Shown here one piece after another: positions 1,275-27,496 of a stretch of 32,571 nucleotides of DNA (position 1 is the stretch's first letter; each line of letters begins with the position of its first letter). The stretch covers positions 1 through 32,571 of the forward strand of contig CBDBIJ010000005.1 in the NCBI GenBank assembly GCA_965205655.1, in the 5' to 3' direction. The notes beneath the pieces were generated by a model. It saw only the letters and a program-made list of their open reading frames with translations, did no database searches and was not told the DNA's origin. Both the position numbers and the translations under genes were made by a program. Source of the stretch: Candidatus Latescibacterota bacterium. GTDB lineage: Bacteria > Latescibacterota > UBA2968 > UBA8231.

Positions 1275-2002
1275 CTACCACGCCAATCCTCCCCCCAGCT
1301 TCCGCAGATCCTCGCGCCGGCGCTCATAGTCCGGCATGATCCTACCCAGGGCCTGCCAGTAGTCCCGCCCGTGGCCTCGGTGCCGCAGATGCACCAACTC
1401 GTGGACCACCACGTAATCCACCAACCGCATCGGGGCCTGGATGATGCGCCAGTTCAGCCGAATGGTCCCGCTGCGGTCGCAGCTCCCCCAGCGCTTCTGC
1501 TGGTCCGCGATGACCACCCGGGGCATCGCGACGCCAACCTTCGACCGCCACGCCTCCACGCGTTCCGGCAACCGCTCCGCGGCGTGACGCCGCAGCCACT
1601 CCACTAGAGCCGCTCGCACATGATCCGGCTGCCCCTCCCCCGCCGGCGCCGGCACGTGGAGCCACCCCCCGCGAAGCTTCGCCTCTCCCAGCGTGTTGGG
1701 GTGAACCTTCAGTCGGTAGTGACGCCCCAGGTACATCACGCTCTCCCCACTCACGAACTCCCGGGGCGACGGCGGCACCCCGTTTGACCCCAGCCCCCGA
1801 AGCCGCTGCACAATCCACCCCGCCTTCCTCCGAGCCACCTCGTCCAACCGGCTGGTTGGGAAGTCCTCCGGGGCCACGAGCAACACCCCGCCTCCAGGAT
1901 CCACCATCACCGCCACGGTCTTCTTCCGCCGGGCGCTGCGTCGGATTGCGTAGGTCAGCTTCGTATCCCCCCAGGTGATGGCCGAGGTCTCCAGGCTGCC
2001 GG

Positions 2003-2006
<4 letters not shown>
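1275..2006 (-). CDS. M48/YgjP-like (DUF45, SprT-like) zinc metallopeptidase associated with Type I RM loci
   Basis: Motifs RRSARRKKT, FVSGESVMYLG, KRWGSC, IRLNWRII and DYVVVHELVH (HExxH). Start overlaps the hsdR stop (ATGA, 2003-2006). Confidence 0.92.
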
Positions 2007-5016
<3,010 letters not shown>

Positions 5017-5020
<4 letters not shown>

Positions 5021-5782
5021 GCGGCCTCGGTGTCCGGGGTGACGCGGAGCTCGCCGGTGAGAAGGGCAGCCATAAGGGACTGTTTGGCTCTTTGAAGTCC
5101 CTCCATCTTCTCCTCTTCTACTTGCAGCCTAATCTCAAATCCACCGAGTACCCCTTCCATCTCGTCTTGTTCCGAGAGCGGGGGCAGGGGAACTCTCAGA
5201 TCATGGATTGGACCTTGCGTAACGAGCGGCTGTCCAGATTTCTTCCGCAGCTTGGCCAAGTTCTCGAACTGCAGAAGAGGGGTCAGAAACCCAACGTTTA
5301 CCGGCCGCAGCCAGTCCCGAGTATAGAGCGCGTTATCAGACACCCAACAAGCCCGATCCGGGCGGTGAACTACCCCACAATATTCCCCGACTCGTCCAAC
5401 TACCAAGAGTGGCGGCTCCGCGTTCGATGACGACGTAAACCCGGCAATACCATTACCACCGAATACAGGGTATGGATTCTCGGTCGAGGTGGTCTCTTCG
5501 AGGGATCGAACCGCGATGCTCTTGCCACTTGTCAATTTGAAGATTTGCCCCAACTGAACTACTTCCCACTCCGCTGGAATCTCCCCAATCTCCGTCTGCT
5601 TGAACCGCGTGTGCCGGCCCGGCAGGCCCCGCGTGAGCAGCTCCTGCATCAGGCCGCGCTTGACGACCTGCACTTGGTCGATGACCGCCTGAGTCTTCTC
5701 GATGGCGTCGTCCACCGAGGAGAGGATGGCGGCAATCTTGCGCTGCTCGGGAACGGGCGGAATCGGAACATTCAGGCTCTTC
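5017..5782 (-). pseudogene. hsdS: Type I RM specificity subunit S, 3' half only (central conserved helix + one TRD + C-terminal helix), truncated by IS256
   Basis: Reading from the IS end gives SLNVPIPPVPEQRKIAAILSSVDDAIEKT...KRGLMQELLTRG...TEIGEIPAEWEVVQLG...VPLPPLSEQ...KQSLMAALLTGELRV. The TRD segment (~5080-5590) is visibly lower in GC. The stop overlaps the hsdR ATG. Confidence 0.9.
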
Positions 5783-7211
5783 GAGCAAGTCCCATTTTCA
5801 GTTGAAACAAAGCACAGGCTCGGTTGAATAGATCAGCCCGTCATAGCGAGCTGTTTGATACCGAGCTCGGCCTGCAGGGCGTGCCGCATCGTCGGTAAGT
5901 GACGGTAGCCCTTGACCCGGCGCAGACGCGGTTCGATGTCCAACAGCGCCGTGGCTACCCAGCGGTGACGCTGCGATGAGTTGCTCCAGCGCCGCACGTT
6001 ATGCGTCAACTGCCCCAGGAGACCGTTGACGTTCTCGATGCAGTTGGTGGTACGGAAGGAATTCTTCAACATCGGCATCACTCCCAAGCGGTGCAGGGTG
6101 AGGGTCTCTTCCAGGCCTTCCTCGAGGCTGCGCAGGGCGGACTGGTTCACCAACTCCAAGCCCGGTTTGAGCGCCTCCAGGGCAGCCTTGGCCTCCTCGT
6201 ACGTCGCTTGCCCGTAGGCCGCTTCCATTTTGTGACGGATCCGGGCCTGCTCGCTCTTGGGCAGATACGAGACGACGTTCTGGCGCTTGTGATACTGGCA
6301 GCGCTGCACGCAGGCATGCCCTTTCAGCACCGACCGCACCGCCTTGTACAGTCCCTTGCCGCCGTCGAGGACGACCAGCAGTCCGGCTTCATACTGCAAG
6401 CCCCGTTCGACCAGATCGGACAGGAAGCGCCGGCAGACGCGCTCGTTCTCGGTGGCCGCCTGCACGAAGCCCGGCGGAATCTTGTGTCCGTCCAGGGTGA
6501 CCCCCAGCGCGATGAGGATTTCTTCGTCGGCGAAGCTCTTGCCGTCGAGAAACAGCGCCACCAGATCGTATCCTTCCAGGGATCGCTCCTGGAATTCGGC
6601 CAGCTTCCGCGCCGTGCCTTTCACGTAGCGGCGCGACACCGAGGAACCGGACCGGCCGAAGGCGGCCGGGACGGTCTCGGCGCAGGCCTCGTAGTCGCGG
6701 GTGGCGATCCCTTTCAACACGCGCAGCAACAGACCCTCGTCCTGGTTCCGGGGCCTCTGCAGGGCCTGGTAGGCCGCCAGCGGCACCTCGGTCCGGCTGG
6801 CCACATTGCGCACCCGCGGCACCTCGACCCTCAGTTTCTGATCGCCCAGATACACCGATCCGGACTGAGATCCCCAGCGGCGCACCGGCTGCTCGGCCCC
6901 CTTGCGCTGATAGCGCGGCCCGGCCAACTCCTCGACCGCCCGTTGCAGTTCCTCGGCGACGGCTTGCAGACCCAAAGGAATCAGGCATTGGATCACCTCG
7001 ATGCGCGTATCCAGATCGCCGGTAAGGGCGGCGGCCTCCGCATTCACGGGGCCGATTTCCAGGCTGCGTTTGACCTGCTTCCGGGGTCCTGATAGCTTGC
7101 TCATGGCAGGCTCCTTTCTGTTACCTGATACGAGGTTTTCCGGAAAAAAACTTCCCGTACCAAGGTAGCGAGAGGAGCCTGTGCTGTTTCAACTAAGATC
7201 GGGACAATGCC
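5783..7211 (-). mobile_element. IS256-family insertion sequence
   Basis: Imperfect ~38-bp terminal inverted repeats: 5783-5821 gagcaagtcccattttcagttgaaacaaagcacaggctc versus the reverse complement of 7175-7211, ggcattgtcccgatcttagttgaaacagcacaggctc. The flanks do not form a matching target duplication. Confidence 0.88.
5833..7104 (-). CDS. IS256 (Mutator-type) DDE transposase
   Basis: Motifs LFLDGKSF, VVLDGGKGL, QRCQYHKRQN and RTTNCIENVN; RBS AAAGGAG upstream; open for 423 aa. Confidence 0.92.
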   Translation of the reverse strand: MSKLSGPRKQVKRSLEIGPVNAEAAALTGDLDTRIEVIQCLIPLGLQAVAEELQRAVEELAGPRYQRKGAEQPVRRWGSQSGSVYLGDQKLRVEVPRVRNVASRTEVPLAAYQALQRPRNQDEGLLLRVLKGIATRDYEACAETVPAAFGRSGSSVSRRYVKGTARKLAEFQERSLEGYDLVALFLDGKSFADEEILIALGVTLDGHKIPPGFVQAATENERVCRRFLSDLVERGLQYEAGLLVVLDGGKGLYKAVRSVLKGHACVQRCQYHKRQNVVSYLPKSEQARIRHKMEAAYGQATYEEAKAALEALKPGLELVNQSALRSLEEGLEETLTLHRLGVMPMLKNSFRTTNCIENVNGLLGQLTHNVRRWSNSSQRHRWVATALLDIEPRLRRVKGYRHLPTMRHALQAELGIKQLAMTG

Positions 7212-7243
7212 TTCTCTTATCCCCCTTCTGAAAGGAGAGACCT

Positions 7244-8272
7244 ATGGTGACGGGGCGTCCATTACCGCCGTTAGAGCTGAGTCCGTCGGACCGGGAACGA
7301 TTGGAATCGATGGCCAAATCCCGGAGCCTTTCCCACGGGTTGGTGCGGCGAGCCGAGATTAGTCTGCTGGCCGCAGAAGGCTGGCCCAATGAAGCCGTCG
7401 CCGCCGCCGTGGGTGTGACGCGTGCTACGGTCGGCAAGTGGCGCCGGCGCTTTCTCGAAAACGGGCTCCAGGGCTTGCATGATGAGCTGCGCTCAGGGGC
7501 GCCACGATCGATTACGGATGAACAGGTAGCCGAGGTGGTATACAAGACCCTGAAGACCAAGCCCAAAGACGAAACACAGTGGTCGGTGCGCTCCATGGGC
7601 GAAGAAACCGGCTTGACCAAGGACGCGGTTCATCGCATTTGGCGCACGTATGGTTTGCAGCCCCATCGACACAAGCACTTCACGCTTTCCACCGATCCTT
7701 TCTTTGTCGACAAAGTACGGGATATCGTCGGCTTGTACCTGAATCCCCCCGAGCACGCCCTGGTGCTGTGCGTGGACGAGAAGAGCCGGATCCAGGCGTT
7801 GGAACGAAGTCAGCCCATGCTGCCCCTGGGACTGGGATACGTGGAAGGGGTACCGCACGACTACAAGCGCCATGGCACCACCACCCTGTTCGCCGCACTG
7901 GACGTAGCCACCGGGGAAGTGATGACCCAGTGCAAGCCCCGTCATCGTCACCAGGAGTTCCTTCCGTTCCTGCGCCACATCGAGGCCCACGTCCCCGCTG
8001 ACCTCGATATTCCTCTCGTCGTCGACAACTACGCCACGCATAAGCATGCCAAGGTCAAGCGATGGCTGGCACGGCGTCCCCGATTTCACGTTCACTACAC
8101 CCCCACCTATGCTTCGTGGCTCAACCAGGTGGAGATTTGGTTCGGCATCATTACCCGCCAGGCGGTTCGGCGCGATTCGTTCCGCAAGGTGTCGGAGCTC
8201 ATCGAGCGCATCGAACGCTACACGGCCAAATGGAACGCCAACGCACACCCTTTCGTGTGGACGGCTACCTGA
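7244..8272 (+). CDS. IS630-family transposase, probably C-terminally truncated and carrying damaging substitutions
   Basis: HTH N-terminus; motifs CVDEKS, YKRHGTTTLFAALD, VVDNYATHK and SWLNQVEIWF. Ends abruptly at PFVWTAT where an IS66-type end begins. RBS AAGGAG at ~7232. Confidence 0.9.
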   Translation: MVTGRPLPPLELSPSDRERLESMAKSRSLSHGLVRRAEISLLAAEGWPNEAVAAAVGVTRATVGKWRRRFLENGLQGLHDELRSGAPRSITDEQVAEVVYKTLKTKPKDETQWSVRSMGEETGLTKDAVHRIWRTYGLQPHRHKHFTLSTDPFFVDKVRDIVGLYLNPPEHALVLCVDEKSRIQALERSQPMLPLGLGYVEGVPHDYKRHGTTTLFAALDVATGEVMTQCKPRHRHQEFLPFLRHIEAHVPADLDIPLVVDNYATHKHAKVKRWLARRPRFHVHYTPTYASWLNQVEIWFGIITRQAVRRDSFRKVSELIERIERYTAKWNANAHPFVWTAT

Positions 8273-8280
8273 ACGGTTAC
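8269..8280 (+). repeat. Orphan IS66-type right terminus
   Basis: ctgaacggttac is identical to 11963-11974 and is the reverse complement of 10390-10401. It sits exactly at the junction between two truncated genes. Confidence 0.6.
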
Positions 8281-8645
8281 CTCCACCCATCCTGACCGCC
8301 CTGCACGAAGACGTGGCGGATGGCTTCGTTATTTGTGCGGGCGCACATCGCCTGTTGAAACAAGCGACCGTTTGTGAGGAAGCGAACAAACCCTTCTGGT
8401 TGCAACTTGTCGGCACCGGGATCACCACAACATGGGCAGCCCACCTCGGTGCCGTATGCGCTCAAGCCAAGTGGCCGGCGATTACCTGTATGAATATCTG
8501 GGAGAGCCAACTCATCACCGAACCGATCGAGTTGCGCGGCGGTTTCTACCGTGTGTCTGAAAAACCGGGTATTGGTGTGGAAGTTGATCAAACAGCCATG
8601 CAGAGATACGAGGTGGACTACTCCTTCGTGGACCTGCCCCGCCAG

Positions 8646-9498
8646 GAACCTATCTCAAAATAGGCAAACTTAAACTTGTTTTCGAAATGACAGTGATGTA
8701 CCATTGGTGTATGGTCAATCTGACCGACATGTAATGGCAACGAATCCGCCATCACTTTCCTGAAGAACTTCGTCCCAAGAGCCATCCGGGTCGCAAACCG
8801 GTTTGCACCCGTGATGTTTTTGAAGCCGTCCTTTGGATTCTAAACACCGGGGCTCAATGGCATATGTTGCCGCCGTGCTATCCGAACTACAAAACCGTGC
8901 ATCGCCGTTTTCAAAACGGGTGTCGTCAAGGGGTGGTACGCGAAGTTCTCATGGACTTGGCCCAGACCCTTCACGAGCAAGGGGGCCTGGACGAATCGGA
9001 GGCTTTCATCGACGGCATGTTCTCGGCGGCCAAGGGTGGAGGTGCCGATATCGGCCACACCAAGCGAGGTAAGGGGGTGCGGGTCATGGGGATCGTGGAC
9101 GGCAATGGGCTTCCCTTGTCGGTGAGCACGCATGCAGCGAACCATCATGAAGTGACGCTGGTTCAGTTGACCTTTGACTTTTACCTGATCGAAGACCAAC
9201 CTGAAACTTGATCGGCGACAAGGCGTACGACAGCGATTCGTTGGATGAAGAGCTTAAGAAAGACGGGATCGAGATGATCGCCCCGCATCGCCAGAATCGG
9301 ACCAAGAAAAAGACTCAGGACGGACGGCGATTGCGGCGTTATGTGCGGCGTTGGATGGTTGAGAGATTCTTTGCTTGGCTTCAATGGCAGCGTCGAGTGA
9401 TCACTCGCTGGGAATTGTATCCGGAGAATTTTCTTGGCTTCGTCCAACTTGCATCCATTTTGATTTTACTTAGACAATTTCAATTTTGAGATAGGTTC
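8646..9498 (+). mobile_element. IS5-family insertion sequence
   Basis: Perfect 16-bp terminal inverted repeats: gaacctatctcaaaat (8646-8661) and attttgagataggttc (9483-9498). Confidence 0.92.
8711..9489 (+). pseudogene. IS5-family transposase, inactivated by a nonsense codon (TAA 8732-8734) and a frameshift (~9205)
   Basis: MVNLTDM*WQRI...VLWILNTGAQW...TVHRRF...FIDG...GKG, then a shifted frame reading IGDKAYDSD...[15 protein letters not shown]. Confidence 0.88.
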
Positions 9499-9909
9499 AT
9501 GTCTATCGCTATGCCCGCGCCAGCAGAGAAACCACCTACTACGGCTGCAGCAAACAGGAACTCCACGCGGTCTATCCGAACGACGCCATGCCTGCTTCCG
9601 AGACGGGATCTTCTCTGGAAGCCGTTCCCGACGACGGAAGTGATGTGTTCAAGGAACTCCATGATGCCGTGCAGGGCGGCAGGACTGTGCGCCGGCTCGA
9701 GCAATAAAGGGGCCTGGACCCGGCCGCGAGTCTCCGCTGCAATCAACCGGCCGTAGGATCTGAACCGCGGCCGCGAATCCCGGATTACTCTGCATCAAAC
9801 CGGATCCAACCATCCATCTGCCCCTGCTGGCCATCTCGCTCCTCTTTGTGGCTCCACCGCTGCCAGCGGGGATGGGAGCGGGGTTGCTGTTAAAGAAACG
9901 ACTGAACAT

Positions 9910-10317
9910 TCAAGATGCGGGAACACCAATCGAGGCGTGGATCTGTGCAAACATCCACACCTCATCAACTTTTTCCAACACGCCCGTCATTCGCATCACG
10001 AACTCCTCCAGTGTGCCTTGCCATTTGAGTCGCCACACCTGACGCGTGTAGAACCACCCGACGTTTTCCCGTTCATGGACGTCAAGATTGATAAACTTAA
10101 TGCTGAAATCCTCTGTGCTTGCGACGTGGTTTCGGTAATACGCCGCGATCTCTGCGCCCCCCTCAACAACTTCATCAGAGTCGGTGCCGATCTTAACATA
10201 GTGAGAGGCAGGACGCATCATTGCAATGAGGGTTTCAGCATCTCCAATAACAAGCGCGTCAAAATACGCCCGCACCGTATCATGCGCATTCGACATCATG
10301 AAATCCCGTAAGGGCAT
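9910..10317 (-). CDS. SnoaL/NTF2-like protein (start may be ATG 10299 or 10296)
   Basis: ~130 aa with VRAYFDAL..GDAETL, IGTDSDE..EG, RMTGVLEK...WMFAQIHAS, which is the typical SnoaL_3 pattern. Confidence 0.82.
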   Translation of the reverse strand: MPLRDFMMSNAHDTVRAYFDALVIGDAETLIAMMRPASHYVKIGTDSDEVVEGGAEIAAYYRNHVASTEDFSIKFINLDVHERENVGWFYTRQVWRLKWQGTLEEFVMRMTGVLEKVDEVWMFAQIHASIGVPAS

Positions 10318-10369
10318 CCCAATTGCGGCAATCCCACATGTGTCGATGCGTATCGATGATGGGTAGCAT
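10280..10369 (-). pseudogene. N-terminal stub of an amidohydrolase_2-type gene
   Basis: Strong RBS (AAGGAAGGAAAG) followed by MLPIIDTHRHMWD (DxHxHxWD metal-binding start motif); similarity is lost immediately afterwards. Confidence 0.55.
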
Positions 10370-10389
10370 GGTCTTTCCTTCCTTTATTA

Positions 10390-11974
10390 GTAACCGTTCA
10401 GTCTCCCTGCAGTAGTTTGCGCATGTAAAGAAATACCTAAGCGGGTTTTCGGGTTCGTCGGTATCTTCGGATTGGTTGTGTGTTGCAGATTCTCCGGATA
10501 CGAGCAACCCCATGAAGAGACCCCCTGAGGGTGCGATTTCCGAAGGCGACTTGCGTCAGCGCATTGTCCAGCTCGAGCGGATCGTGGAACAACAGACGTC
10601 CCGCATCGCCGAGCTGGAGCAGGAATTGGCCCGTCGCAAGGGGCGATCCCGCCGTGGCGCTCAAACCTCCTCGTCGGGTTCCTCCTCGCCGCGCACCGAC
10701 ACCTCCCGACGCCGATCCTCGGGGCGCTCGCCGGGCGGACAGCCCGGGCACGAAGGACCCGGCCGCTCGTGGGTATCGGTGGAGCAGGTGGACGAACGGA
10801 TCCCGGTCAAGCCGAGTACGTGCCACGGATGCGGGCACCCGTTGACGGGAGACGATCCTCATCCGCAGCGTCACCAGGAAGTCGTCCTCCCGCCGCTGCG
10901 GGCCGAGGTCATCGAGTATCAGTTGCACCCCCTGCGCTGCGCTCACTGCGACCGCCTGACCGCAGCCGGTTGGCCCGAGGGCGTGTCGCGCCACACCTTC
11001 GGTCCCAGCGTGCAAGCCTGGGTCGGCCTGCTGGCCGGGGCCTACCGGCTGAGCAAGCGCAACATCCGGGCGTTGTTGTCCGACGCCTTCGGCCTCGAGG
11101 TGTCGCTGGGTACGGTCAGCCGACTGGAACGGGAGGTGGCCGCGGCCCTGGCGGGTGCGGTCGAGGAGGCGCGCGCCTTCGTTCGCCGACAGGGCCTCGT
11201 CAACGTCGACGAGACCGGCTGGCGCCAGCGCCGCGCCAAGGCCTGGTTGTGGACCGCGGTGACGGCCGGCGTCACCGTGTTCGCCATTCGCCCCAGCCGG
11301 GGACGGGACGGGGTCGATGAGGTGCTGGGTGCGGACAACCGGGCGGTGGTCGGCTCCGATCGCTATTCGGCCTACGCGCATCTGCCGCTGCGACGCCGGC
11401 ACGTCTGCTGGGCTCATCTGCGGCGCGCCTTCGAGGAGTTCGTGGCCCGGGGCGGAGAGGCCGAGCGCGTCGGTCACCACCTGTTGGACCGCAGCGAGCA
11501 GCTGTTTACCTGGTGGCATCAAGTCCGCGACGGCACCCTGTCCCGGGCCCGCTTCCAGGACTATATCGACGATTTGTGTCTGCGCTTTCGTTTTCATTTG
11601 TGCTATGGTCAGCAGTTCGCCGACGCCAAGACGGCGGCCACCTGCGCCAATCTCCTCGACCTCGGGCCGGCCCGGCGTCGAGCCGACCAACAACGAAGCC
11701 GAACGAGCCCTTCGCCATGGCGTGTTGTGGCGTCACACCAGCTTCGGTACCCACAGTGCCGAAGGCAGCCGTTTCGTAGAGCGCCTGCTCACGGTACGCG
11801 ATACCCTGCGCCAGCAGCAGCGCAACGTCCTCGACTATCTCAGGATGGCCTGTGACGCGGCCGTGTCTCAGCAGCCGGCGCCCTCGCTGCTGCCTTCAAC
11901 CCACTCCGCCATTCGTTAATATTCTGCTACCATTCCGCCCCCGGCCCCAACCTGCCAGGGAACTGAACGGTTAC
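10390..11974 (+). mobile_element. IS66-family element, single-ORF (ISBst12-like) type
   Basis: TIRs gtaaccgttcagtctccctgcag (10390-) and ctgccagggaactgaacggttac (-11974), with 13 bp perfectly inverted. No tnpA/tnpB accessory genes. The 8-bp flanks (ctttatta / cacctggg) differ. Confidence 0.9.
10512..11919 (+). pseudogene. IS66 transposase (TnpC-like) with a deletion/frameshift near 11665
   Basis: Coiled coil, GGQPGHEG, zinc finger CHGCG/CAHC, VDETGW, SDRYSAY and CWAHL. The C-terminal GVEPTNNEAERALR...PSLLP is in another frame. Confidence 0.9.
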
Positions 11975-12460
11975 CACCTGGGCATGACCACTTTGGTCCG
12001 ACGCAAAAACCACGTAGCGTTCACCCGGGGAGAAATGCGGATGCGGATGCGTGTGCTGCGGCGCATGGACCGCGACCACTCGCACCACCACCTCCTGTTC
12101 CCGCCCCACCCGGATCATCTCCCGCGCCTGCGCCACCAAACTGCACCAAGTGGTCTCGCACAAATTGTGGATGCCGTGGCTCGACAGGTATATCGAATAC
12201 GCGTAGTGCGAGGGCACCGGCGTGACGACCAACGCCGCCTCGGCGATCCCGTCCCTGACCAATTCGCGCACATCGTAAGCCCGCACGCCGAGCGCTGCGG
12301 CCGCCCGGTCGCAATGCTCCTCGACCGGATCGACGCAAGCCACCACCTCGACCCAGTCTTCAAGCGACGGCAGCAAAGGCTGATAAATGGTGCTGGCGCG
12401 ATTGTAAGGATTTCGGCGCCTTTCTGATCCGAAGCTCCTTCCGGCGGGGGGCTCGAGCAA
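11975..12460 (-). pseudogene. Chimeric remnant: Gfo/Idh/MocA oxidoreductase NAD-binding fragment fused to a TolB/oligogalacturonate-lyase-like propeller tail, cut by the IS66 end
   Basis: VEVVACVDP...ALVVTPVPSH...GIHNLCET is joined at ~12080 to QHTHPHPHFSPGERYVVFASDQSGHAQV. Confidence 0.6.
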
Positions 12461-12546
12461 ATCAGGTGAGGAAAGTCACTTCAGCGTCCACATAGTAGGC
12501 GCATTGACTGCAATTGACTATTATGCGCCGGTGAGGAAACACCCCC

Positions 12547-13716
12547 ATGAAAATCGAATCGATCGACTTCCAAATCCTCGAAAGCGATCCCGTTGAACCG
12601 GAGTGGCGTCCACTGCGGGCGATGCGGGAGTATCCGGGGTCGACCAAGGTGCGGTTCGGGCATCGGCTGTTCAGCGGGGACGGGATCCGCTTGGAGCCCA
12701 GGCCGGCTTACACGTGTCTGCTCCGGATCCGAACCGATGCGAATCTCGAGAGCATCGGATCCTTCTCCTCCGGCTGGGGGAAAGAGGATCTCGAGTGGGG
12801 GGCGCGTACGTTCAAGGTCCAGTGGGAGCCGGAACTCGTCGGGCAGGATGCACTGAATCGCGAGTATATGTGGCACAAAATGTGGATGGCCCGGCGCTAC
12901 TTTCATATGACATCGACAGGTCCTCTCGCTTTGATCGACACGCTTTTGTGGGATCTGGCGGGGCTCCACGCCAGGTTGCCTGTCCACAAGCTGCTCGGTG
13001 GATTTCGCGACCGTGTCCCGGCCTATCTCACGGAAACGGGCATCCCCTACGAAGACACGCTGAAGTCGGCGCAACGGGCAGTGGACGAGGGTTACAAGGG
13101 GTTCAAGGACCACTCGATGCTGGGCGTCGAAACAAACCTCGCCCTCGCCAGGGACATCCGCAGTCTGGTCGGCAACGAGATGGCATTAATGCACGATCCC
13201 GTCCAGCAATACACCGTTGAAGATGCCATCAAAGTGTCGCGCGGGTTGGAAGAGCTGGGGTACATATGGATCGAAGAGCCCCTGCAGGAGTTCGACATCA
13301 ACGGGCTGAAACGTCTTTCCGACGCGGTTGATCTACCGGTGATGGCGCTCGAATCGATACATGGAAATCCCTACCTGGCGACGCCCTATCTTGTGGCGGG
13401 AGCGATCGATATCGTGCGGAATACCGGGCTCGGGATCACCGGCAAGATGAAGCTCGCGAATCTTGCAGAGATGTTCGGACTGAATGTCCACGGTGGAGGG
13501 GCGCAGGTTGTGGCCGCGACCCGAAACGACGACTGGTGGGAAGTGGGGGCGTGGCTGCCGACGGTCGCTGACCGCTCGATTTCTGCGGCATTTGCTGGCC
13601 TGATACGGGAAACTACGGAGGTCAGGGACGGCTATATGTATGTGCCACAGACGCCTGGGTTGGGGCGGGAGATAGACTGGGCGCAGATTGAGGCGAGGAC
13701 CATTTTAAGGGTGTAG
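12547..13716 (+). CDS. Mandelate racemase/muconate lactonizing enzyme family protein (enolase superfamily)
   Basis: Motifs IDTLLWDLAG..ARLPVHKLLGG, GYKGFKDH, metal ligands MHD / WIEEP / ALES, and VPQTPGLG; RBS GAGGA; intact 389 aa. Confidence 0.9.
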   Translation: MKIESIDFQILESDPVEPEWRPLRAMREYPGSTKVRFGHRLFSGDGIRLEPRPAYTCLLRIRTDANLESIGSFSSGWGKEDLEWGARTFKVQWEPELVGQDALNREYMWHKMWMARRYFHMTSTGPLALIDTLLWDLAGLHARLPVHKLLGGFRDRVPAYLTETGIPYEDTLKSAQRAVDEGYKGFKDHSMLGVETNLALARDIRSLVGNEMALMHDPVQQYTVEDAIKVSRGLEELGYIWIEEPLQEFDINGLKRLSDAVDLPVMALESIHGNPYLATPYLVAGAIDIVRNTGLGITGKMKLANLAEMFGLNVHGGGAQVVAATRNDDWWEVGAWLPTVADRSISAAFAGLIRETTEVRDGYMYVPQTPGLGREIDWAQIEARTILRV

Positions 13717-13775
13717 CCGCGTTTTTACGCAGCCATCGTGCGGGGTTGAAATGAACAACAATGCCTTAAAGATCG

Positions 13776-15217
13776 GGCTCCTCTGGAGAATCTGTGGGTG
13801 AGGAGGGGAGGCTGCGGCGATGGGAATAGAGGAGGCCAGGTAGCCCAGGCGCATCATCCCCCGGTATGTTGGGACAGTCCACCAAGACGGAACCCAACTA
13901 CCTGTGGAGGGAACGATGCGCCTGATCACGGTACTAAACCGGTGCACGACCTTCAAGCGGTTTGTGTTTGAGGGCAGTCATTTTGACCGGCACGGAAGGA
14001 TAATGGTGAGGATAAGGCCACGGAAAAACTCCCGGGGCGCGTGCAGCGGCTGCGGTCACTTGGCCCCCACCTATGACACGGCCCCCGAGGCCCGGCTGTT
14101 CGAGTTTGTTCCCCTCTGGGGGTTTCCGGTCTTTCTGGTGTATCGCATGCGCCGGGTTGCCTGCAAAGCCTGCGGCCGGGTGGTCGTCGAGAAGGTCCCC
14201 TGGAGCACGGGCAAGCACCACCTGACCGACCTCTACCGCTGCTTCCTGGCCCAGGGGGCCAAAAAACTGTCGTGGATCGAGGTGGCGCGTTCCTTCCGGA
14301 CCCGTTGGGACAAGGTCTACCACTCCGTCCAGTACGTCGTGGACTATGGGCTCGCTCATCGCTGCCTCGACCAGGTCACGGCCCTCGGCGTGGATGAAAT
14401 CCAGTATCGTAAGGGGCATCATTATCTGACGTTGCTGTACCAGATCGACCCCCACCGCCGCCGCCTGTTGTGGATGGGCGAGAAGCGGACGAAGAAGGCC
14501 TTGAACGACGGCTTTACCGAACGGGAGCAGGAGCACCGGCGCAAGCAGGAAGCCGGCGGCGAGCAGGAGCCGACCCGTTTCCTCGACCAGATTACCGTCA
14601 TCTGCTCTGATATCTGGAAAGCCTACCTCAACGTTATCAGCAAGCGGCTCCCCACCGCGGTACCTATTCTCGACCGTTTTCACCTCATGCAGCACTTCAG
14701 CAAGGCCCTCGACAAAGTCCGTGCCGAAGAGGCCCGCAGACTCAAAGAACAGGGCCAGGATCCGGTCCTGAGCAAGAGCCGCTGGTGCTTCCTGAAGCGC
14801 AAGGAGAACCTCAGCGACTCCCAAGGCTTGAAGCTGTCGGAGCTATTGAAGATGAACCTGCGGACGGTCAGAGCCTACCTGCTCAAGGAGGACTTCCAGC
14901 GCTTCTGGGACTACACCTACTCCGCGTGGGCTGAGAAGTTCCTCCAGCGCGGGTGTTTCCGTACGATGAGAAGCAACATCGAACCGATGAAAGACATCGC
15001 CGGAATGCTGCGGCGTCACCAAGAGCTCATCCTCAATTGGTTCAGGGCCAGGAAGCAGTTCAACAACGGCATGGTCGAGGGCTTGAACCTGAAATGGAAT
15101 CTGACAGGGAGAAAAGCATTCGGATTCCGCACCTTCAAGGCACTCCAAATCGCTTCATTCCATCAGCTTGGCGATTTACCCGAGCCACAATTCACCCACG
15201 AATTCTACTGACGAGCC
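13776..15217 (+). mobile_element. ISL3-family insertion sequence
   Basis: Imperfect 26-bp TIRs: ggctcctctggagaatctgtgggtga versus the reverse complement of the right end, ggctcgtcagtagaattcgtgggtga. No matching flanking duplication. Confidence 0.9.
13916..15211 (+). CDS. ISL3 transposase (open frame, several conserved residues apparently mutated)
   Basis: Zinc finger CSGCG/CKACG; motifs GVDEI, CSDIW, LDRFH, VEGLN and AFGFRT; RBS GGAGGG. Confidence 0.9.
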   Translation: MRLITVLNRCTTFKRFVFEGSHFDRHGRIMVRIRPRKNSRGACSGCGHLAPTYDTAPEARLFEFVPLWGFPVFLVYRMRRVACKACGRVVVEKVPWSTGKHHLTDLYRCFLAQGAKKLSWIEVARSFRTRWDKVYHSVQYVVDYGLAHRCLDQVTALGVDEIQYRKGHHYLTLLYQIDPHRRRLLWMGEKRTKKALNDGFTEREQEHRRKQEAGGEQEPTRFLDQITVICSDIWKAYLNVISKRLPTAVPILDRFHLMQHFSKALDKVRAEEARRLKEQGQDPVLSKSRWCFLKRKENLSDSQGLKLSELLKMNLRTVRAYLLKEDFQRFWDYTYSAWAEKFLQRGCFRTMRSNIEPMKDIAGMLRRHQELILNWFRARKQFNNGMVEGLNLKWNLTGRKAFGFRTFKALQIASFHQLGDLPEPQFTHEFY

Positions 15218-15279
15218 TTCGGAAAGATTCGCCCGTTCCTTCGACCGATGATGAGTGAAGGGAGTCGGAGGAACCTCCG

Positions 15280-16219
15280 TCCCCACCAGATCCAGATACG
15301 TCAGCCGTTTCCCCAGCATCCCGGAAACAAGGAATTTCATCTGTTCCATGATATCCATTCCTCGGATATTGTGCCTCCCTACCATCTCGTTGAGGTATCG
15401 GGGGAAATACTTGGGAGATATGTGGCGATAGGGCCCGCGATAGGTTCCCTTCCCCTCATCCCAGGAACGATTCAATACCGTTGGTATGGACATCGTCCCT
15501 GACGAATTCTCTTTTTTTATGGTTGACGAATTCGTGCCTCCCCGCCAACCCGAAATTGGAATAAGACCTGAACTCGTCGCTGTAAAGGGTTCCCCCAGGG
15601 CATAGGTGTTTCTCTGCGCATGTGCGCAAGGTCTTGCGCTTCCTATCGGGGATCACCTCGGCGGCCACCCTGCCGGTTTCCCGGTCAATCATTCCGACCA
15701 CGATGATCTTGCCCTTCATCCAGTTTTCGCGAAGCTTGTTCGAAGCTTGTTCTTGGAGTGCTTGTTTTTCTCTTTTCCGCCGAATAAGGTTTCGTCTATC
15801 TCAGCAACTTCGCAGTTGAGGCTGTCTTGTTCTGGCCACCCTTCCCGGATGCGGTGCAGCATGAACCAGGCCGACCGATAATTAAGGTCGAGGAGGCGGT
15901 GCAGTTCCATACCGCTTACACCCTTCGTGGTCAGGTGCAGACGGACGGCGGTGGCCCATTTCCGCAAGGGGATCTTGGAGTGGGACATTTCCGTTCCGGT
16001 CCGAACGCTGAATCGCTTTCGGCAGTCGCCGCACCAATACGGCTGGGGTTTCCGGTTGGGACATTCCGATATCATCCCGCAGCAGCCGCAATGCGGGCAG
16101 TGTATGGAGACGGGAAGGCCGTCTACCGTCTTTCCCCATCTGAGTTCTTCGAACCATTTTTCCGCCGTTGTATTGTCTGAAAATTTTACAGATAATTCGA
16201 TGCCTTTACTATTTTTCAC
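15280..16219 (-). pseudogene. IS1595-family transposase in three frameshifted pieces (3' boundary approximate)
   Basis: CPHCG...CGDCRKRFSVRTGT, AWFMLHRIR and EIDETLFGG (15716..16219); LYSDE, VNH and HTNGIES (15456..15719); YRHISPKY..RYLNE...KRLTY (within 15176..15493). TIRs not identified. Confidence 0.88.
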
Positions 16220-16323
16220 TTCGATTACCTCGGGCCGTGGAGGTACCAGCGGCCCTCAAAAAATATTGTGATTCACGCTCCCATAGTTTTCCTTTCGGTT
16301 TGTAGTGGGAAGGTGACCTGTCG

Positions 16324-17305
16324 ATGTGCACCGACAGAGGGAAAGGGAAGCGCCAGCGGATCCTGACAGCCGTTCTGCCTGCTCCTGTCGAACCAGTCTT
16401 CGTTGCAGGCGCAGCCGGATTACGGTTATCGCCTTGGTGATAGAGTCGGCGGGCGCCTGAACTATCGCGTTCCGGGGGTGTCCACGTACATGGAAGCCCT
16501 CGATCCGTCAATTCAGCGATGGTACCTCCCCGCGGTCCATTTCAGCGAGGCCGGCCGCCAGCGGTGGCAGTACACGAACTGGGCCAGGGACAGGCAGCAG
16601 CGATACGTCAATGCCGGCCTCGAGGGAGACAACTATTACGATTTCTTCGGGGATCTGGTGACCCGGGGTTGGGTCGTCTACAGCTGGCAACAGGTTCAGC
16701 CCGTGATCGCGAGCTCGTCGGGGATTGTCAAGGCCCAACGATACATCCGCAAGGCCGGCTACAACGGAGTCATCACCGAATACACGGCCGAGCGCTTTCA
16801 CGTGACCGGACTGTTCTCGCGAATTGGATTTCCGATAGTGGGACAGGGGGGAGCCACGTTCCAGAACTTCACCAACCTCGCCGGCGGTCGCGCTACCGCA
16901 GATGTAACTGACTTCATGACCCTCCCACTGACGTTTGTCAACAGTCACAATGGCACGGGTGCGGCCGACGCCTGGGAAGGCAACGCCTTCACGGGCTGGC
17001 TCAACAGCGAGCAGCTGAGCCAGCGACTCGAACTTCTGGTGTTGCGCCTCTCCGACGATTCTCCGGAAGACGCCGAAGGTGGGGCAATGCTCTTCAGCGA
17101 CGATCTCGAGATTTCGACAACCATCGTCCGCGACGCCCTGATCGACAGGGAGACGGTGATGGTCGAGACAGACACCGTCTTCTTCGCCAGCTCGATCGAT
17201 TTTCGCCCCGCCGTCGAAGGGGGCAAAGTACGGCAGGGCTTCTTGACCGCCGATGGCGGCGAAGACATCGTCATGAAATACCTCCTGGCGCCAGCACGAA
17301 GGTGA
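16324..17305 (+). pseudogene. Truncated paralog of the 980-aa exported protein at 27497..30439
   Basis: Colinear with the first ~350 aa of 27497..30439 (DYGxRLGDRVG, DPxIQRWYLP, DDSPEDxEGGA, QGFLTADGxExIVMKY). It has a frameshift in the signal-peptide region, a 35-aa in-frame deletion at ~16745, and has lost the C-terminal ~630 aa. Confidence 0.85.
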
Positions 17306-22397: not shown

Positions 22398-22435
22398 CTT
22401 GCGTCCGTGTGGCTGCTAACCAAGGTCTAGGCGCG

Positions 22436-24664
22436 ATGCTACGGAAACATGACGCCGTTGCCGGATGGATTTCGGCGGCGATCCTGCTCGCCGGGACAAC
22501 GACGACATCAGCCGTCACCGATGTGATCATCGTCGGCGGTGACGAGGGTCTCACCTGGGAAAGCGGTGGGGGAGCCATCCCCGCGACGCTGATTGTGTCC
22601 GCGAAAAAGGTGGAGCGCACCAACGCGCCCGGAGGCGTGGTGGATTTCGATCCGTCCGCCAGGCCCAACTGGATATTTCCGAAGCAGGCGGACCCATCCG
22701 ATAACATTCTGATCGGCTTCGATTCCGACGCCCGCGGGGGCAAGGTCGAAACGCCCATCCCTTCTTTCCGATATCTTGAGAGCAGCTTTCCCAACCTGTA
22801 CGACAACGACGGCGACACGGCGCTAGAGGTGATTGTCGAGTCGGGCGCGTTCGGTCTCATCATTCAGTTCGACTTGGGCGCCGTTTTCGGCGTCAATCGA
22901 CTCCGTTTCTTCCCGCGCAACGCCGCTCCCGATTTCCCGTCTCGGCTGTTTCCCAATCAGCGGAAGTTCCTGAAGGGTTTCGAGCTGTTCGTCAACGACG
23001 GCGCGCCAGAGTCGATACGAGACGAGGCCTTCATCTGGGAGACGATCGCCCTCGAGGGACAGAACGACGAGCCAGTGGTCGACGTACATATCCCGACCCG
23101 TTTCGTCCGCCACATCCGGCTGAAATCCCTTACTCAAGCCGGCTTCGAAATGGCCGAATTCCAGGTGTTCACCGAAGGGTTCGTGCCGCAGGCCCTCTAC
23201 GTGTCGAACATCTTCGACTTCAGAAAGAAGACCATCCTGGGCAACCTGCGCTACATCCAGGAGCAGGTCGGCGACCCACAGCGATCCCAGGTGCAGATCC
23301 GCACCCGCCTGGGAATCGATCCCGATCCGGTTGAGTACACGCGTATCGGTGTACAGACTTCCGGGAGGGTGGTCAGGAGAGGGGCTGATTTCGAGTCTGT
23401 TCCGATCGACGTACCCTGGATGAAAGCTGAAGACGTCGACGAAAGCCGGCTCAGCAACCTGATAGAGACCGTCCTGGATAATGCGGAGAACGACGGACGT
23501 GAGTCCCTGCTCATGTACAAGAGCCTGTCCCTCGAAGATCGAGAAGAGATCACGCTCGACCAGGACAGGTATTTCGATCTCGAAAACGAGGAGCGTTCGA
23601 GCATCCGCGACGATCTGACCAACTGGAGCCCGTGGTCGCCTCCGTACCCCGTGGAGGCGGTTGTCGAGGAGGGCCAACTCCGGGAATCGTCGATGGGTGC
23701 GGCGATCTTTGCCGCCGAGCCACGCCGATACTTCCAGTTCAGGGTCGAATTCTCCAGCGAGATTTTCAATGCCGGATCGGGCGTCGGCGAACTGGCCATC
23801 GACGCCTCTCGACCCGCGTTCGCTGACTCGCTCGTAGCCGAGATCTTCCCTCGTTCCAGCGTCTCAGGGGAAGAAACGGATTTCACCTACGCGGTGCGAT
23901 ACACGAGCAAAGGGTTGGACGCGGGCTTCGATCGATTCCATATCACGACTCCCTTAAAGGTGCGGGACATCGGCAAGGTACAGATCATTGGCGCGGGCGA
24001 TTCCATCGAACGGGAAGCGGATTTTACGGGTGCCTCTCTGGAGCAGCTGCCCGTGTCCCGAAGCGAGGTCGCGGTGACGGAAGTGACTGACGAGGGTTTT
24101 ACCCTCTCCTTCCCGCGCATCAGGACGAGCGGCACTGTGCTCAAAGTTGAATTCAGAAGCACCGTACTGAGGGTATGGACGCGCTTCGGCGGCGAGGCGC
24201 TGAATTCAGACGATCTGGCCTCCGGCCAGGCGGCAGTCGCGGGCAATGCGGCCGACTTGAGTCTGCCGGGGCTCGAAGATCCCGACACGGAGGCGATAGG
24301 CACCTCAATCGCCAGAAATCTGTTCGTCGACGTGCCGGTCGTAAACGCCCTTCTGATCAACGTCTCGGCGGGCTCCGGCGTGTTCACCCCCAACGGCGAC
24401 GGAGTCAATGACATCGCGGCGATCGAGTACGACATCACCAATATCGGCACGTCCACACACGTGGAGGTTACGGTATTCGATCTTTCCGGGAGGCGGGTCA
24501 GGGCATTCAGTCAACTCCAGGACAGCGGCCGCTACGCCCAGACGTGGGACGGCCGCGACGAAGCCGGCAATATGGTACCGCCAGGCAACTATCTCTATGT
24601 GGTGGAGCTCGAAGCGGGAATCGGCTCCGAGAAGAAACCGGGGATACTCAGCGTCGCCTATTGA
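22436..24664 (+). CDS. Exported protein with discoidin/F5-8-like jelly-roll region and C-terminal FlgD-Ig (T9SS-CTD-like) domain
   Basis: Signal peptide MLRKH...AAILLAGTTTTSA; IQFDLGAVFGVNRLRFFPR...RHIRLKS...EMAEFQVF; C-terminal FTPNGDGVND...VFDLSGRRVR...WDGRDEAGNMVPPGNYLY. Confidence 0.8.
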   Translation: MLRKHDAVAGWISAAILLAGTTTTSAVTDVIIVGGDEGLTWESGGGAIPATLIVSAKKVERTNAPGGVVDFDPSARPNWIFPKQADPSDNILIGFDSDARGGKVETPIPSFRYLESSFPNLYDNDGDTALEVIVESGAFGLIIQFDLGAVFGVNRLRFFPRNAAPDFPSRLFPNQRKFLKGFELFVNDGAPESIRDEAFIWETIALEGQNDEPVVDVHIPTRFVRHIRLKSLTQAGFEMAEFQVFTEGFVPQALYVSNIFDFRKKTILGNLRYIQEQVGDPQRSQVQIRTRLGIDPDPVEYTRIGVQTSGRVVRRGADFESVPIDVPWMKAEDVDESRLSNLIETVLDNAENDGRESLLMYKSLSLEDREEITLDQDRYFDLENEERSSIRDDLTNWSPWSPPYPVEAVVEEGQLRESSMGAAIFAAEPRRYFQFRVEFSSEIFNAGSGVGELAIDASRPAFADSLVAEIFPRSSVSGEETDFTYAVRYTSKGLDAGFDRFHITTPLKVRDIGKVQIIGAGDSIEREADFTGASLEQLPVSRSEVAVTEVTDEGFTLSFPRIRTSGTVLKVEFRSTVLRVWTRFGGEALNSDDLASGQAAVAGNAADLSLPGLEDPDTEAIGTSIARNLFVDVPVVNALLINVSAGSGVFTPNGDGVNDIAAIEYDITNIGTSTHVEVTVFDLSGRRVRAFSQLQDSGRYAQTWDGRDEAGNMVPPGNYLYVVELEAGIGSEKKPGILSVAY

Positions 24665-24711
24665 CGGCGGGCGGCATACGGCTGCCACCCCGATTGGAGA
24701 AGAGATCTGTT

Positions 24712-27495
24712 TTGGATATTCATCGCAAAGGCCTCGTCCTCGGTCTGGTGTATCTGACGCTGGCCGCAACGGTCCTCGCCCAGGACTATGGCGCCCGACT
24801 CGGCGTCAAACGTGGAGGCACGGTAAGCTTCGAGCCTTCGGGGCCGGGCGTCTTGTTCGGCGCCCTCGATCCAACTGTGCGGCGCTGGTTCGTCCCTCAG
24901 GAACTCTACAACGAGTACCGCTGGCGCCAGTGGGAATACTCGAACTACGCGCGCGCTCCGTATCAGCGGTACGTCAACACGGCGCTCCAAGGGGACTACT
25001 TCTACGACTCTTTCGGCGATTTCGTGAGCCGCGGCTGGCTGATCTACGACTGGCGTGAAAACCGGCCCGCGAAAGAAGGCAGCAGCATTTTCAAAGGTTC
25101 GAACTTCGCCGGCTTTTTCAGCAATCTCACGGTCAGCAGCGACTCCCGGGGTCAGTACGACTATGCCATCACGGTGGGCAATCGGATCCGCACAACGCTG
25201 ACGCCGATGACGTTTTCGAAGCCCAACTTCAGCGGAATGCAGATCGATTTCGCAGCTGACAGATACTCGGCCACCATCCTGGCTTCCAGAATCAGCGACC
25301 CGACCGAGGGTGTGACCCTTTCCCCCCGGCAGTGGACCAACGCGACGAGCCTGGTCGGGGGCCGGGCGACCGTGCAGATAGGCGACTTCATCACCGTGGG
25401 TGGGACCCTGGTGGATGCGCGCAACGCCCACACCTCGCTCGACATGTTTTCGGGCAACTTCCTCGCCGGAAACCTGACCTCGGGGCAGAGCAGCACGCCC
25501 ATCTCGGCGATTGCTATCGTTCTCAGCGACGACACCCCCGAGGACGGGGTGGGCGGCGCGGTGCTGTTCCGCCACGACATACGTATCAGAAGCAAGGACT
25601 TCGAGTCCGGTCTCGAGCGGGTACAGACTCTAGAGCAGGTGGTGCGACCGGGCGCCGAATGGCCCACCGTGTTCGGGGAGTTCTCGCGCAAAGGCGTTCT
25701 GGCCGCCGACGGGGCCGAGCGCATCATCCTGAACTACGATTTCACCGATCCGGCCTACACCGGACCGGATCTCACCAGCATCACCGACGTGGAGTTCGAG
25801 TACCTGCTTGCCAACGACTACAAGGTCGAAATGTGGTCGAACCGTCAGACGGGAAGACGCGAAGTCCCGCCCGCACCTCTGACCAGCGCCGTCATCGACG
25901 AGTCAGAGCCGGTACTGCTCACCGTAAAACGGGCCAGCGGCAACATCAAAGACATTTCCAACGTGCGCGTCGTCAAATTCAACTACGGCTTGCCGACGGC
26001 GAACTTGGTAGGCGGTTTCACGATCGACGGCAGGGACGTGTTCGGGTGGGATATCAACGGCGAGTGGGATCGCAATATACGATACGCCCAGTATCCCAAC
26101 GCCGCCCTGTTCGCCACAGCCAAGGGCCACGAAATCTCATCGGAGAGTGCCGAAGCCGCGCTCCTCACGATCGCCAAGCAAGAGTATCCGTACTTCGCCT
26201 TTGGCGAGTTCTACTCCATCGATGGCGACTACTCGACGAGTGCCTTTGTGACTGACACCGATGGGGAGTTGCGGTACGACTTCCCCCTGCGATCGGTCTA
26301 CGAATTCGTCGACGACAACGACGACCACGACGGCAGGCCCGACTGGGGGCGAGTCGGCAACCAGCTCGTAGACCAGCAGGTGTTTCCGGGCTGGGACGAA
26401 AACAACGACTTCATCTCCGATTTCAACCAGAACGACAACACCGCGGTGCCCAACATCATACCCGACTACGAGGAGCCCTTTCTCAGGCACCAAGTCGATC
26501 GCCCGGAGTTCCTGTTCGGCATCGATCTCAACAACAACGGTTGGATCGACCGTTTCGAGGACGACGAGCTGCCCGATTATCCGTACAAGGCCGATCGGAG
26601 GGGCTACAACGTCTTCACCGGGGCTCACCTGACTCCGGAATCACGCGTCTTCGTCGGCCGCGTTGACGAGCGCATGTTCACCGACGATCGCGACAACCGC
26701 TCAACGTACGGGATGTTCACCTTCGACAGGGATTTCGCCGGACTGGGGAGAGTCCGGATCTTCGATATGCTCAAGCGGGTCGAAGATACGATCCCGGAGG
26801 ATCGGCGGGCACCCACGCCGTATCGAAGTGCGCCCGCACAGCCGCTGGTAAGCGATATCCTTCCCGCTCCCGACACGTGGATCAACACGGCGTGGTTGGG
26901 CTTCGACTACACCGCGATTCCGCGCCTCAAGGTGATCAGTAAGCTCAAGTACGAATTCTACAACCAGACCAAGGACGACCCCCGCGACATCGACGGGCGT
27001 CAGCTGAACGGCACGACAAGCTTCTTCGGCCTCATCAACAAGCTGGAGTACAACTATGCGATTGGGAATCTCGAGTTGCAGCCGAAATTCAAGAGCGAGC
27101 TGCTGACGCAGGACGCGTTCGCAAAAGAAGATGAGGATCGCAGGCACTGGACGGGGTTGGTCACCCTGCTGGCGCAGCTGCCCGTCCTGAGACGGAGCGT
27201 GTTAACAGGCGGCCTCGAGCTCGCCCAGTTCGCCGACAGAGAGACGGATGAGGATGAGATGGTCGACTCGGGGACGACTGGTGAAACGGGTGACGAGCGT
27301 TCGGCTATCCTGGCTCTGCAGCTCAACAACACCTCCCAGTATCTGGGGTATCGGGTCACCACCCAGGTCGGTCTGCGCTTCGGCCGCGTCTTCCGGGAAC
27401 TGGTGGAGCAAGAAGAGCCTACGGTGTACGAGAAGCGGTTCGAAGGGTGGACGGAGAAGACGAGCTTCATAACGCTCTACGCCGGGATCGATTGA
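24712..27495 (+). CDS. Uncharacterised exported protein (~927 aa), probable outer-membrane beta-barrel with D/N-rich insert; paralog A
   Basis: GGAGA RBS and TTG start, signal peptide ...LTLAATVLA|QDYG; many amphipathic strand-like segments; DDNDDHDGRPD, DENNDFISD and DLNNNGWID loops; full-length similarity to the next gene. Confidence 0.75.
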   Translation: MDIHRKGLVLGLVYLTLAATVLAQDYGARLGVKRGGTVSFEPSGPGVLFGALDPTVRRWFVPQELYNEYRWRQWEYSNYARAPYQRYVNTALQGDYFYDSFGDFVSRGWLIYDWRENRPAKEGSSIFKGSNFAGFFSNLTVSSDSRGQYDYAITVGNRIRTTLTPMTFSKPNFSGMQIDFAADRYSATILASRISDPTEGVTLSPRQWTNATSLVGGRATVQIGDFITVGGTLVDARNAHTSLDMFSGNFLAGNLTSGQSSTPISAIAIVLSDDTPEDGVGGAVLFRHDIRIRSKDFESGLERVQTLEQVVRPGAEWPTVFGEFSRKGVLAADGAERIILNYDFTDPAYTGPDLTSITDVEFEYLLANDYKVEMWSNRQTGRREVPPAPLTSAVIDESEPVLLTVKRASGNIKDISNVRVVKFNYGLPTANLVGGFTIDGRDVFGWDINGEWDRNIRYAQYPNAALFATAKGHEISSESAEAALLTIAKQEYPYFAFGEFYSIDGDYSTSAFVTDTDGELRYDFPLRSVYEFVDDNDDHDGRPDWGRVGNQLVDQQVFPGWDENNDFISDFNQNDNTAVPNIIPDYEEPFLRHQVDRPEFLFGIDLNNNGWIDRFEDDELPDYPYKADRRGYNVFTGAHLTPESRVFVGRVDERMFTDDRDNRSTYGMFTFDRDFAGLGRVRIFDMLKRVEDTIPEDRRAPTPYRSAPAQPLVSDILPAPDTWINTAWLGFDYTAIPRLKVISKLKYEFYNQTKDDPRDIDGRQLNGTTSFFGLINKLEYNYAIGNLELQPKFKSELLTQDAFAKEDEDRRHWTGLVTLLAQLPVLRRSVLTGGLELAQFADRETDEDEMVDSGTTGETGDERSAILALQLNNTSQYLGYRVTTQVGLRFGRVFRELVEQEEPTVYEKRFEGWTEKTSFITLYAGID

Positions 27496-27496
27496 G

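Follow-up and report, generated by a model that had tools for sequence, protein, structure and literature searches.

The window, i.e., the whole 32,571-nucleotide stretch of Candidatus Latescibacterota DNA analysed here (the entire contig C5 of assembly G000, 4.0 Mb in 150 contigs), carries six transposase genes of insertion sequences (IS), and across five of these elements A:T>C:G changes are in excess, most characteristically where the A follows a C. Several described systems provide a frame for this pattern. In fungi, repeat-induced point mutation (RIP) changes C to T at CpA of repeats, each copy being loaded separately. GC-biased gene conversion and concerted evolution homogenise multi-copy sequences. 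Among bacterial processes, as set out in the accessible parts of the respective papers, MutY excises A from G:A mispairs (PMC12606429) and has been modelled as acting on recombination heteroduplexes (PMC2582958). Loss of mutT causes context-independent A:T>C:G changes in P. aeruginosa (PMC10625568) and changes that prefer a 3' A in E. coli (10.1101/2022.10.21.513255), while the bacterial GGGT>GGGG hot spots affect a T that follows a run of G (Cherry, 10.1101/2022.10.28.514265).

When all columns of five window elements were counted, A>C accounted for 33 of 98 non-synonymous differences, the others being 17 A>G, 3 A>T, 7 C>A, 22 C>G, and 16 C>T. The synonymous differences included 4 A>C out of 79 (possible A>C sites: 1,911 non-synonymous and 193 synonymous). 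The IS polymorphism of G000 itself, a baseline from a different host, predicts an A>C share of 8.6% (p=3e-12), and a stricter count gave 25 of 57 non-synonymous differences. Because the excess persists when every column and class is counted, selective noticing is no longer a concern, and the A:T>C:G excess in a CA/TG context reported in a preliminary description of this DNA is borne out by the unbiased count.

Along the lineages of the window, of G015 (another genus of the same family as G000), and of the relatives G010 and G018, 75 of 790 A sites after C changed versus 36 of 1,640 other A sites (odds 4.7); in the five window elements, 18 of the 33 non-synonymous A>C changes follow a C, as do about one third of the sites. 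Both strands are affected and the 3' neighbour has no effect. No longer motif was found around the changed A beyond the 5' C and a weaker effect of the base at −2 (rates of 14% for CCA, 12% for ACA, 7% for GCA, and 4% for TCA), so that a restriction-methylase site is an unlikely target. Overall, CA is not depleted in G000, C5, or 55 kb of G015 (odds 0.98-0.99). In G018 and G010 copies, at the positions that correspond to window 7316-7317, 7559-7560, and 14312-14313, adjacent A's are altered stepwise, CAA>CCA>CCC, as if each change made the next target.

Taken at CpA, the signature matches none of the bacterial signatures compared, as far as the accessible text of their sources describes them. 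It shares with the mutT signature the substitution class and its presence on both strands, but here the effect depends on the 5' C and is indifferent to the 3' base; since the published mutT signature is either context-independent or prefers a 3' A, the mutT (8-oxo-dGTP) link suggested in the preliminary description is weak. Furthermore, A:T>C:G does not dominate the singletons as in a mutT mutator (3/44 in G015, 13/185 in G000), although G010 comes closer (A/C at 19/42 sites, unpolarised). The GGGT>GGGG hot spots are likewise a context-dependent T>G beside G in bacteria, with the opposite polarity, as here the T precedes the G (TG>GG, TGG>GGG). MutY correction predicts conversion of A:T to C:G with short patches, and mutY is present here; however, the accessible sources report for it neither a CpA preference nor an action on IS families, and the gene also occurs in an unaffected genome. 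As in GC-biased gene conversion, copies are homogenised, strong-pairing alleles stand at higher frequency, and damaging alleles become fixed; the differences are that A>C is favoured far above A>G, that the bias depends on a 5' C, and that the exchange takes place between bacterial IS copies. As in RIP, repeats gather a single type of substitution at CpA and both strands are hit, but the type is A>C (C>T is 16/98), the changes are common across copies, and they leak into silent sites of host genes. A literature search that covered few subscription journals and no supplements found no description of CA>CC loading of IS.

The six elements, whose families match by profile those named in the preliminary description, are as follows.

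5790-7175, minus strand: IS256-family element, transposase at 5833-7104 (PF00872); the L>R change at 6653 is A>C in a CA context.
7212-8268, plus strand: IS630-family element (PF13358), 3' end cut, with loose ends at 8268.
8646-9499, plus strand: IS5-family element (PF13586/PF01609), A>C at 8874 and T>G at 8918.
10395-11975, plus strand: IS66-family element (PF03050), A>C at 10759, 10929, 10963, and 11402.
13776-15215, plus strand: ISL3-family element (PF01610), the most skewed of the window.
15218-16286, minus strand: IS1595-family element (PF12762), in pieces.

A>C accounts for 8 of the 15 non-synonymous differences in the ISL3 element, and in 7 of the 8 a C precedes the changed A. The IS630 element, whose nearest relatives in the named collection belong to Candidatus Latescibacterota, has A>C at 7853, 7965, 7988, and 8013 and further at 7265, 7362, and 7683. 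The IS5 copy has a private stop at 8732, from C>T, and the best relatives of the IS1595 element reach at most 79% identity over more than 300 bases.

The preliminary description had named 16 codons as products of A:T>C:G changes. All are present in the sequence as given; with the direction of change read from columns where other genomes agree, ten are clear cases, three are compatible but weakly polarised, and three were misread. The clear ones can be followed through G015, in which five of the window elements form multi-copy families at 92-99% identity. The derived allele occurs in 7/8 G015 copies at 6653 (IS256); in 2/7 at 7853, 7/7 at 7988, and 0/7 at both 7965 and 8013 (IS630), that at 7965 being found in the window and in G010; in 10/14 at 8874 and 14/14 at 8918 (IS5, the latter Trp>Gly); and in 7/7 at 14255 (Trp>Gly), 6/6 at 14664, and 7/7 at 14951 (Trp>Gly) of ISL3. 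The weakly polarised sites are 14303 (ISL3; CGT in 12 relatives, AGY in 5), 14684 (ISL3; CTC in 9, ATC in 6), and 15431 (IS1595; ACC in 8, ATC in 6, a gap in 1, the relatives being only 66-76% alike). The supposed D>A at 11427 (IS66) is A>G and not A>C, because the relatives show Thr (14 rows) or Ala (11) and never Asp, and there is no change at 14159 (ISL3, D>A), where 18/19 relatives have Ala, or at 15401 (IS1595, H>P), where 13/16 have Pro. The CA/TG context holds for 11 of the 13 clear or compatible sites, the exceptions being 7853 and 15431. Of 79 distinct relatives in the IS630 family, 77 retain Thr204 and 78 retain His257.

Sequencing runs independent of the assembly reproduced part of these alleles. 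Contigs of four runs from four studies cover all or part of 13776-14591 in ISL3 (414-816 bases) and differ from it by 1-2 letters, and one independent-run contig matches 15281-16031 (IS1595) without a difference. Position 7965 is A in all four independent runs, and among the 40 of 357 rows of differences listed the derived base at the window-private positions 7965 and 8013 is not confirmed by reads.

The excess extends over several genera. Non-synonymous A>C reaches 28/43 in G010, 35/115 in G015 (divergent families included), 15/77 in G018, and 17/75 in G017, and falls to 3/55 in the resident families of G000 and 1/16 in G013, both unaffected. At conserved columns, A>C makes up 17/28 changes in this IS630 family and 14/96 in unrelated genomes; other chromosome-level metagenome genomes with the IS630 family showed no skew (2/49 changes at conserved columns). 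Three IS630 subfamilies of G010 carry 10-12, 13, and 8 A>C changes, and in one G018 copy (L052) A>C constitutes 18 of 22 non-synonymous changes. The three G010 subfamilies, G018, and the window show changes at identical codons although their silent backgrounds differ, which is what single-base repair patches would produce, and the CA hits of G010 and G018 overlap at 11 sites against 3.2 expected. In the G010 repeats (L224-L243), A/C variation occupies 19/42 segregating sites (unpolarised) versus 109/571 in G000; C/G transversions are at 0/42 of these sites versus 57/571.

Of the two explanations that the preliminary description offered, neither holds up in the form proposed; the first was an unusual mutation spectrum of the whole lineage. 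G000 lacks such a spectrum, since its own IS polymorphisms include 18/261 A>C and its families, with up to 38 members, are unskewed; a weaker form of the proposal survives at silent sites of its relatives' host genes, discussed below. The spectrum drawn from the window's own assembly was set aside as ordinary and from the wrong host, as no copy of the six elements above 91% identity exists elsewhere in G000.

Indeed, within G000 the skew is limited to C5. The window IS256 is 97.6-98.7% identical to G015 copies and 80-85% identical to the IS256 families resident in G000, from which it differs by 18 CA>CC and 1 CC>CA. C5 is among the 7 of 61 large G000 contigs without resident IS. The absence of resident IS, the G015-like families, and the confinement of the skew to C5 make the contig, or a 14-kb island within it, look foreign to its bin: C5 is probably mis-binned or the carrier of a recently imported island. 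The proteins of its right half have paralogs in G000 of at most 48% identity, the best DNA matches of that half lie in genus g16 (77-82% to G032), and the tetranucleotide profile of C5 ranks 58 of 61 in distance from the mean and places it among IS-rich contigs. The window copies would thus have acquired their A>C load in an affected, G015-like host rather than in the lineage from which most of G000 derives. Spectra of IS can therefore reveal foreign contigs in metagenome bins. The hosts may live as symbionts, the sponge and coral labels being attached only to small-share runs.

The island and its hsdR-like gene are the following.

1276-15217, no strand assigned: 14-kb island with an M48-like gene, hsdR, hsdS, five IS, and an enolase-family gene, in the gene order of G015.
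2003-5020, minus strand: hsdR-like gene (named from its translation, without a profile hit), with window-specific frameshifts due to extra bases near 2880 and at 4388 relative to relatives.

The island aligns with G015:C1:969756-983405 in three blocks of 96.1%, 98.0%, and 99.8% identity. At the same loci, 127 of 5,991 IS bases differ between the window and G015 (2.1%) versus 12 of 3,841 non-IS bases (0.3%), about sevenfold; six of the 12 lie at the ISL3 edge, and the other six are all transitions (A>C 0/6). IS copies have thus been exchanged non-reciprocally and overwritten in place, and therefore damaging alleles can be common to copies without each copy having jumped. Most A>C changes have reached fixation throughout a multi-copy family, and most single copies have no private A>C. 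The preliminary description, correct about the excess, overlooked both the family-wide fixation and the overwriting.

Allele frequencies in G015 are skewed towards A>C. The share of A>C rises from 3/44 singletons (7%) to 10/108 shared (9%) and 35/161 near-fixed differences (22%). The mean derived frequency is 0.57 for A>C (n=17), 0.40 for A>G (32), 0.38 for C>G (35), 0.35 for C>T (57), and 0.26 for C>A (11). A>C stands above the remaining classes (p=0.002, with the same direction in 4/4 families that have such sites) and above A>G (p=0.013), and the strong-pairing gains A>C and A>G stand above C>A and C>T (p=0.008); all of these values come from one genome and from linked sites.

Host genes supply the contrast. 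In hsdR, which the preliminary description had proposed for comparison, A>C makes up 1/39 non-synonymous differences, so there is no excess; for hsdR and the M48-like gene together the figure is 4/55 versus 25/57 in the IS (p=9e-6). These genes are not a neutral control, because they have been under selection for most of the branch. Their silent sites show 6/98 A>C versus 46/236 A>G over six lineages. The pseudogene at 16324-17305, proposed for the same purpose, has paralogs only 68-71% identical, and the direction of its changes is not readable.

In the silent-site comparison, also proposed there, four relatives show a weaker CA>CC asymmetry. In samples of 140-460 kb per relative (for G010 and G015, regions chosen around IS), CA>CC:CC>CA relative to G000 was 323:148 in G010 (other contexts 548:510), 153:101 in G018 (237:329), 123:78 in G015 (237:245), and 53:14 in G002 (97:87), i.e., odds ratios of 1.6-3.4 with p<0.005 in each of these 4/7 relatives, in a pairwise test without direction and at sites near saturation. 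The asymmetry was not significant in G013, G032, and G017, and broadly tracks which genomes have loaded IS. Silent sites in about 17 kb of host genes of G018 and its congener G002, both of which may share the bias, gave no clear asymmetry (A>C 109, C>A 89). At four-fold sites, the T:G odds before G are 0.60 in G010 and 0.71 in G018 versus 0.91-1.33 in six others; in G010, T shows no depletion before GG (odds 1.71), and G before G is unusually frequent at its host silent sites. A three-way host test with G015 and G026 gave 9/56 versus 8/169 (p=0.015) when a duplicated block was included and 6/41 versus 7/109 (p=0.19) for single-copy genes alone. The block, TolC/HlyD-like and 98.5% identical between its copies in G026 (L373, L375), has 8/20 private A>C in one copy and 0/13 in the other. 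When the host silent spectrum of the larger three-way set was scaled by IS branch length and by selection on other classes (0.31), it predicted 26+15 non-synonymous A>C in the IS, and 18+15 were seen; the same scaling predicted 12 silent A>C, and 4 were seen. The signal is thus strongest in IS, probably extends beyond them, and does not appear in all IS families.

Repair genes do not separate the hosts. Profiles for mutY and mutS scored above cut-off in 5/5 genomes searched, fpg in 4/5, and a DinB-type polymerase with full score in 4/5; each genome has 8-14 NUDIX matches, for which an 8-oxo-dGTPase substrate is not readable from sequence. None of these genes distinguishes the affected from the unaffected among the five genomes. 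The mutT/mutY/mutM search suggested in the preliminary description accordingly located NUDIX, mutY, and fpg in affected genomes. A full fpg was not found by profile search in G000, which is 84% complete. The mutY of G000 (G000:C12:21725-22760) has a frameshift directly before the NUDIX-like C-terminal domain, which G015 keeps in frame; this frameshift could result from an assembly error or from the 84% completeness, and the match in unaffected G013 is unbroken.

The explanation tentatively favoured here, at something short of an even chance, is that biased repair of A·G mismatches, of the MutY type, during gene conversion drives CA>CC in IS. Copies in Latescibacterota-type symbionts recombine and overwrite one another, and where an A:T allele met a C:G allele in a heteroduplex, repair of the A·G mismatch would favour C·G over the opposite outcome, with MutY-type excision of the adenine as the most plausible route. 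A>C alleles would therefore rise and become fixed family-wide despite the loss of conserved residues, other damaging changes still being purged, and recombination between strains could expose single-copy genes to a weak form of the same action. The 5' C preference could originate either in the repair itself or in its mutational input. If this explanation is true, ordinary DNA repair can sweep damaging alleles through every IS copy, the more so with more recombination. IS could then go extinct without selection, and bacteria would offer a measurable example of biased gene conversion with a specific mismatch and context. Several observations weigh against this account. No source consulted, in its accessible parts, gives MutY a 5'-C preference, and the presence of mutY does not explain which genomes are affected, because unaffected G013 also has it. 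Only 11 of the 19 CA hits of G018 are common to G010, so new mutations are needed, as they are for the heavily loaded G018 copy (18/22). One ISL3-like family with multiple copies shows no skew (7 A>C and 5 C>A of 74 differences), the A>C changes confined to one copy of the G026 block look like mutation and not sharing, and an older mutator phase would mimic the frequency skew of G015.

Such mutation is the core of a second explanation, which is possible although less probable: a lineage-wide, perhaps episodic, A:T>C:G bias after C, caused for example by insertion of G or 8-oxo-G opposite an A that has C as the next template base. Such a bias would hit all DNA, be purged from host proteins, and become visible in weakly selected transposases, conversion then spreading the alleles without bias. 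The silent asymmetry in G010, G018, G015, and G002, the low T:G odds before G in G010 and G018, the rough agreement between the host silent spectrum and the non-synonymous IS load, the A/C variation in G010 repeats, and the one-sided G026 block all fit this bias. However, the G015 singletons are ordinary, all six non-IS island differences that do not lie at an IS edge are transitions, the single-copy three-way test gives p=0.19, and hsdR and M48 silent sites favour A>G; T before GG is not depleted in G010, the pairwise host test is undirected, and NUDIX genes, fpg, and mutS are present in affected genomes. Biased conversion and a lineage-wide bias can operate together. A dedicated process, analogous to RIP in the way that the preliminary description imagined, which would recognise IS or repeats and turn their CpA into CpC, is quite unlikely. 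The contrast between IS and hsdR plus M48, the action on both strands within a dinucleotide context, the heavy loads of some copies, and the 106:5 ratio of non-synonymous CA>CC:CC>CA between G010 IS and G000 (copies counted repeatedly, some frames antisense) would suit it. Against it, hsdR and M48 are selected and hence no neutral contrast, singletons are ordinary and few copies have private loads, one family is unskewed, and G000 families of up to 38 members are untouched; no candidate enzyme turned up among the GO-system, mutS, and Y-family polymerase profiles searched. Since the silent sites of host genes carry the same context signal in weaker form, targeting is not needed. Finally, an artefact of sequencing or assembly, or a choice of sites biased towards X>P and W>G changes, is very improbable. 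Three of the 16 named sites were indeed wrong and the window-private sites have no read confirmation, but the alleles recur in separate assemblies and in the contigs of the four studies, near-identical copies within one assembly hold either allele in the same context (10/14 at 8874), and the excess survives the unbiased count, so that this reading is largely refuted.

A broader proposal, which remains rather doubtful, is that symbionts of several phyla disarm multi-copy IS through a copy-number-dependent A:T>C:G ratchet at CpA, by tuned mismatch repair or a new mutator, turning Trp, His, Gln, and Thr codons into Gly and Pro family-wide. Such a ratchet would be a functional counterpart of RIP with different chemistry.

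Two further features of the window were observed. Between 1275 and 5789, hsdS differs from the syntenic G015 island at 1/769 bases, hsdR at 172/3,015, and the M48-like gene at 97/724; the near-identity of hsdS beside the divergence of the other two indicates a recombination breakpoint near 5020. Farther right, large proteins without a name (751, 983, and 980 aa) cluster at 22409-30439, and G015, G026, and G032 contain many paralogs of them, the 751-aa member having a weak, below-cut-off T9SS/FlgD-like match at its C-terminus.

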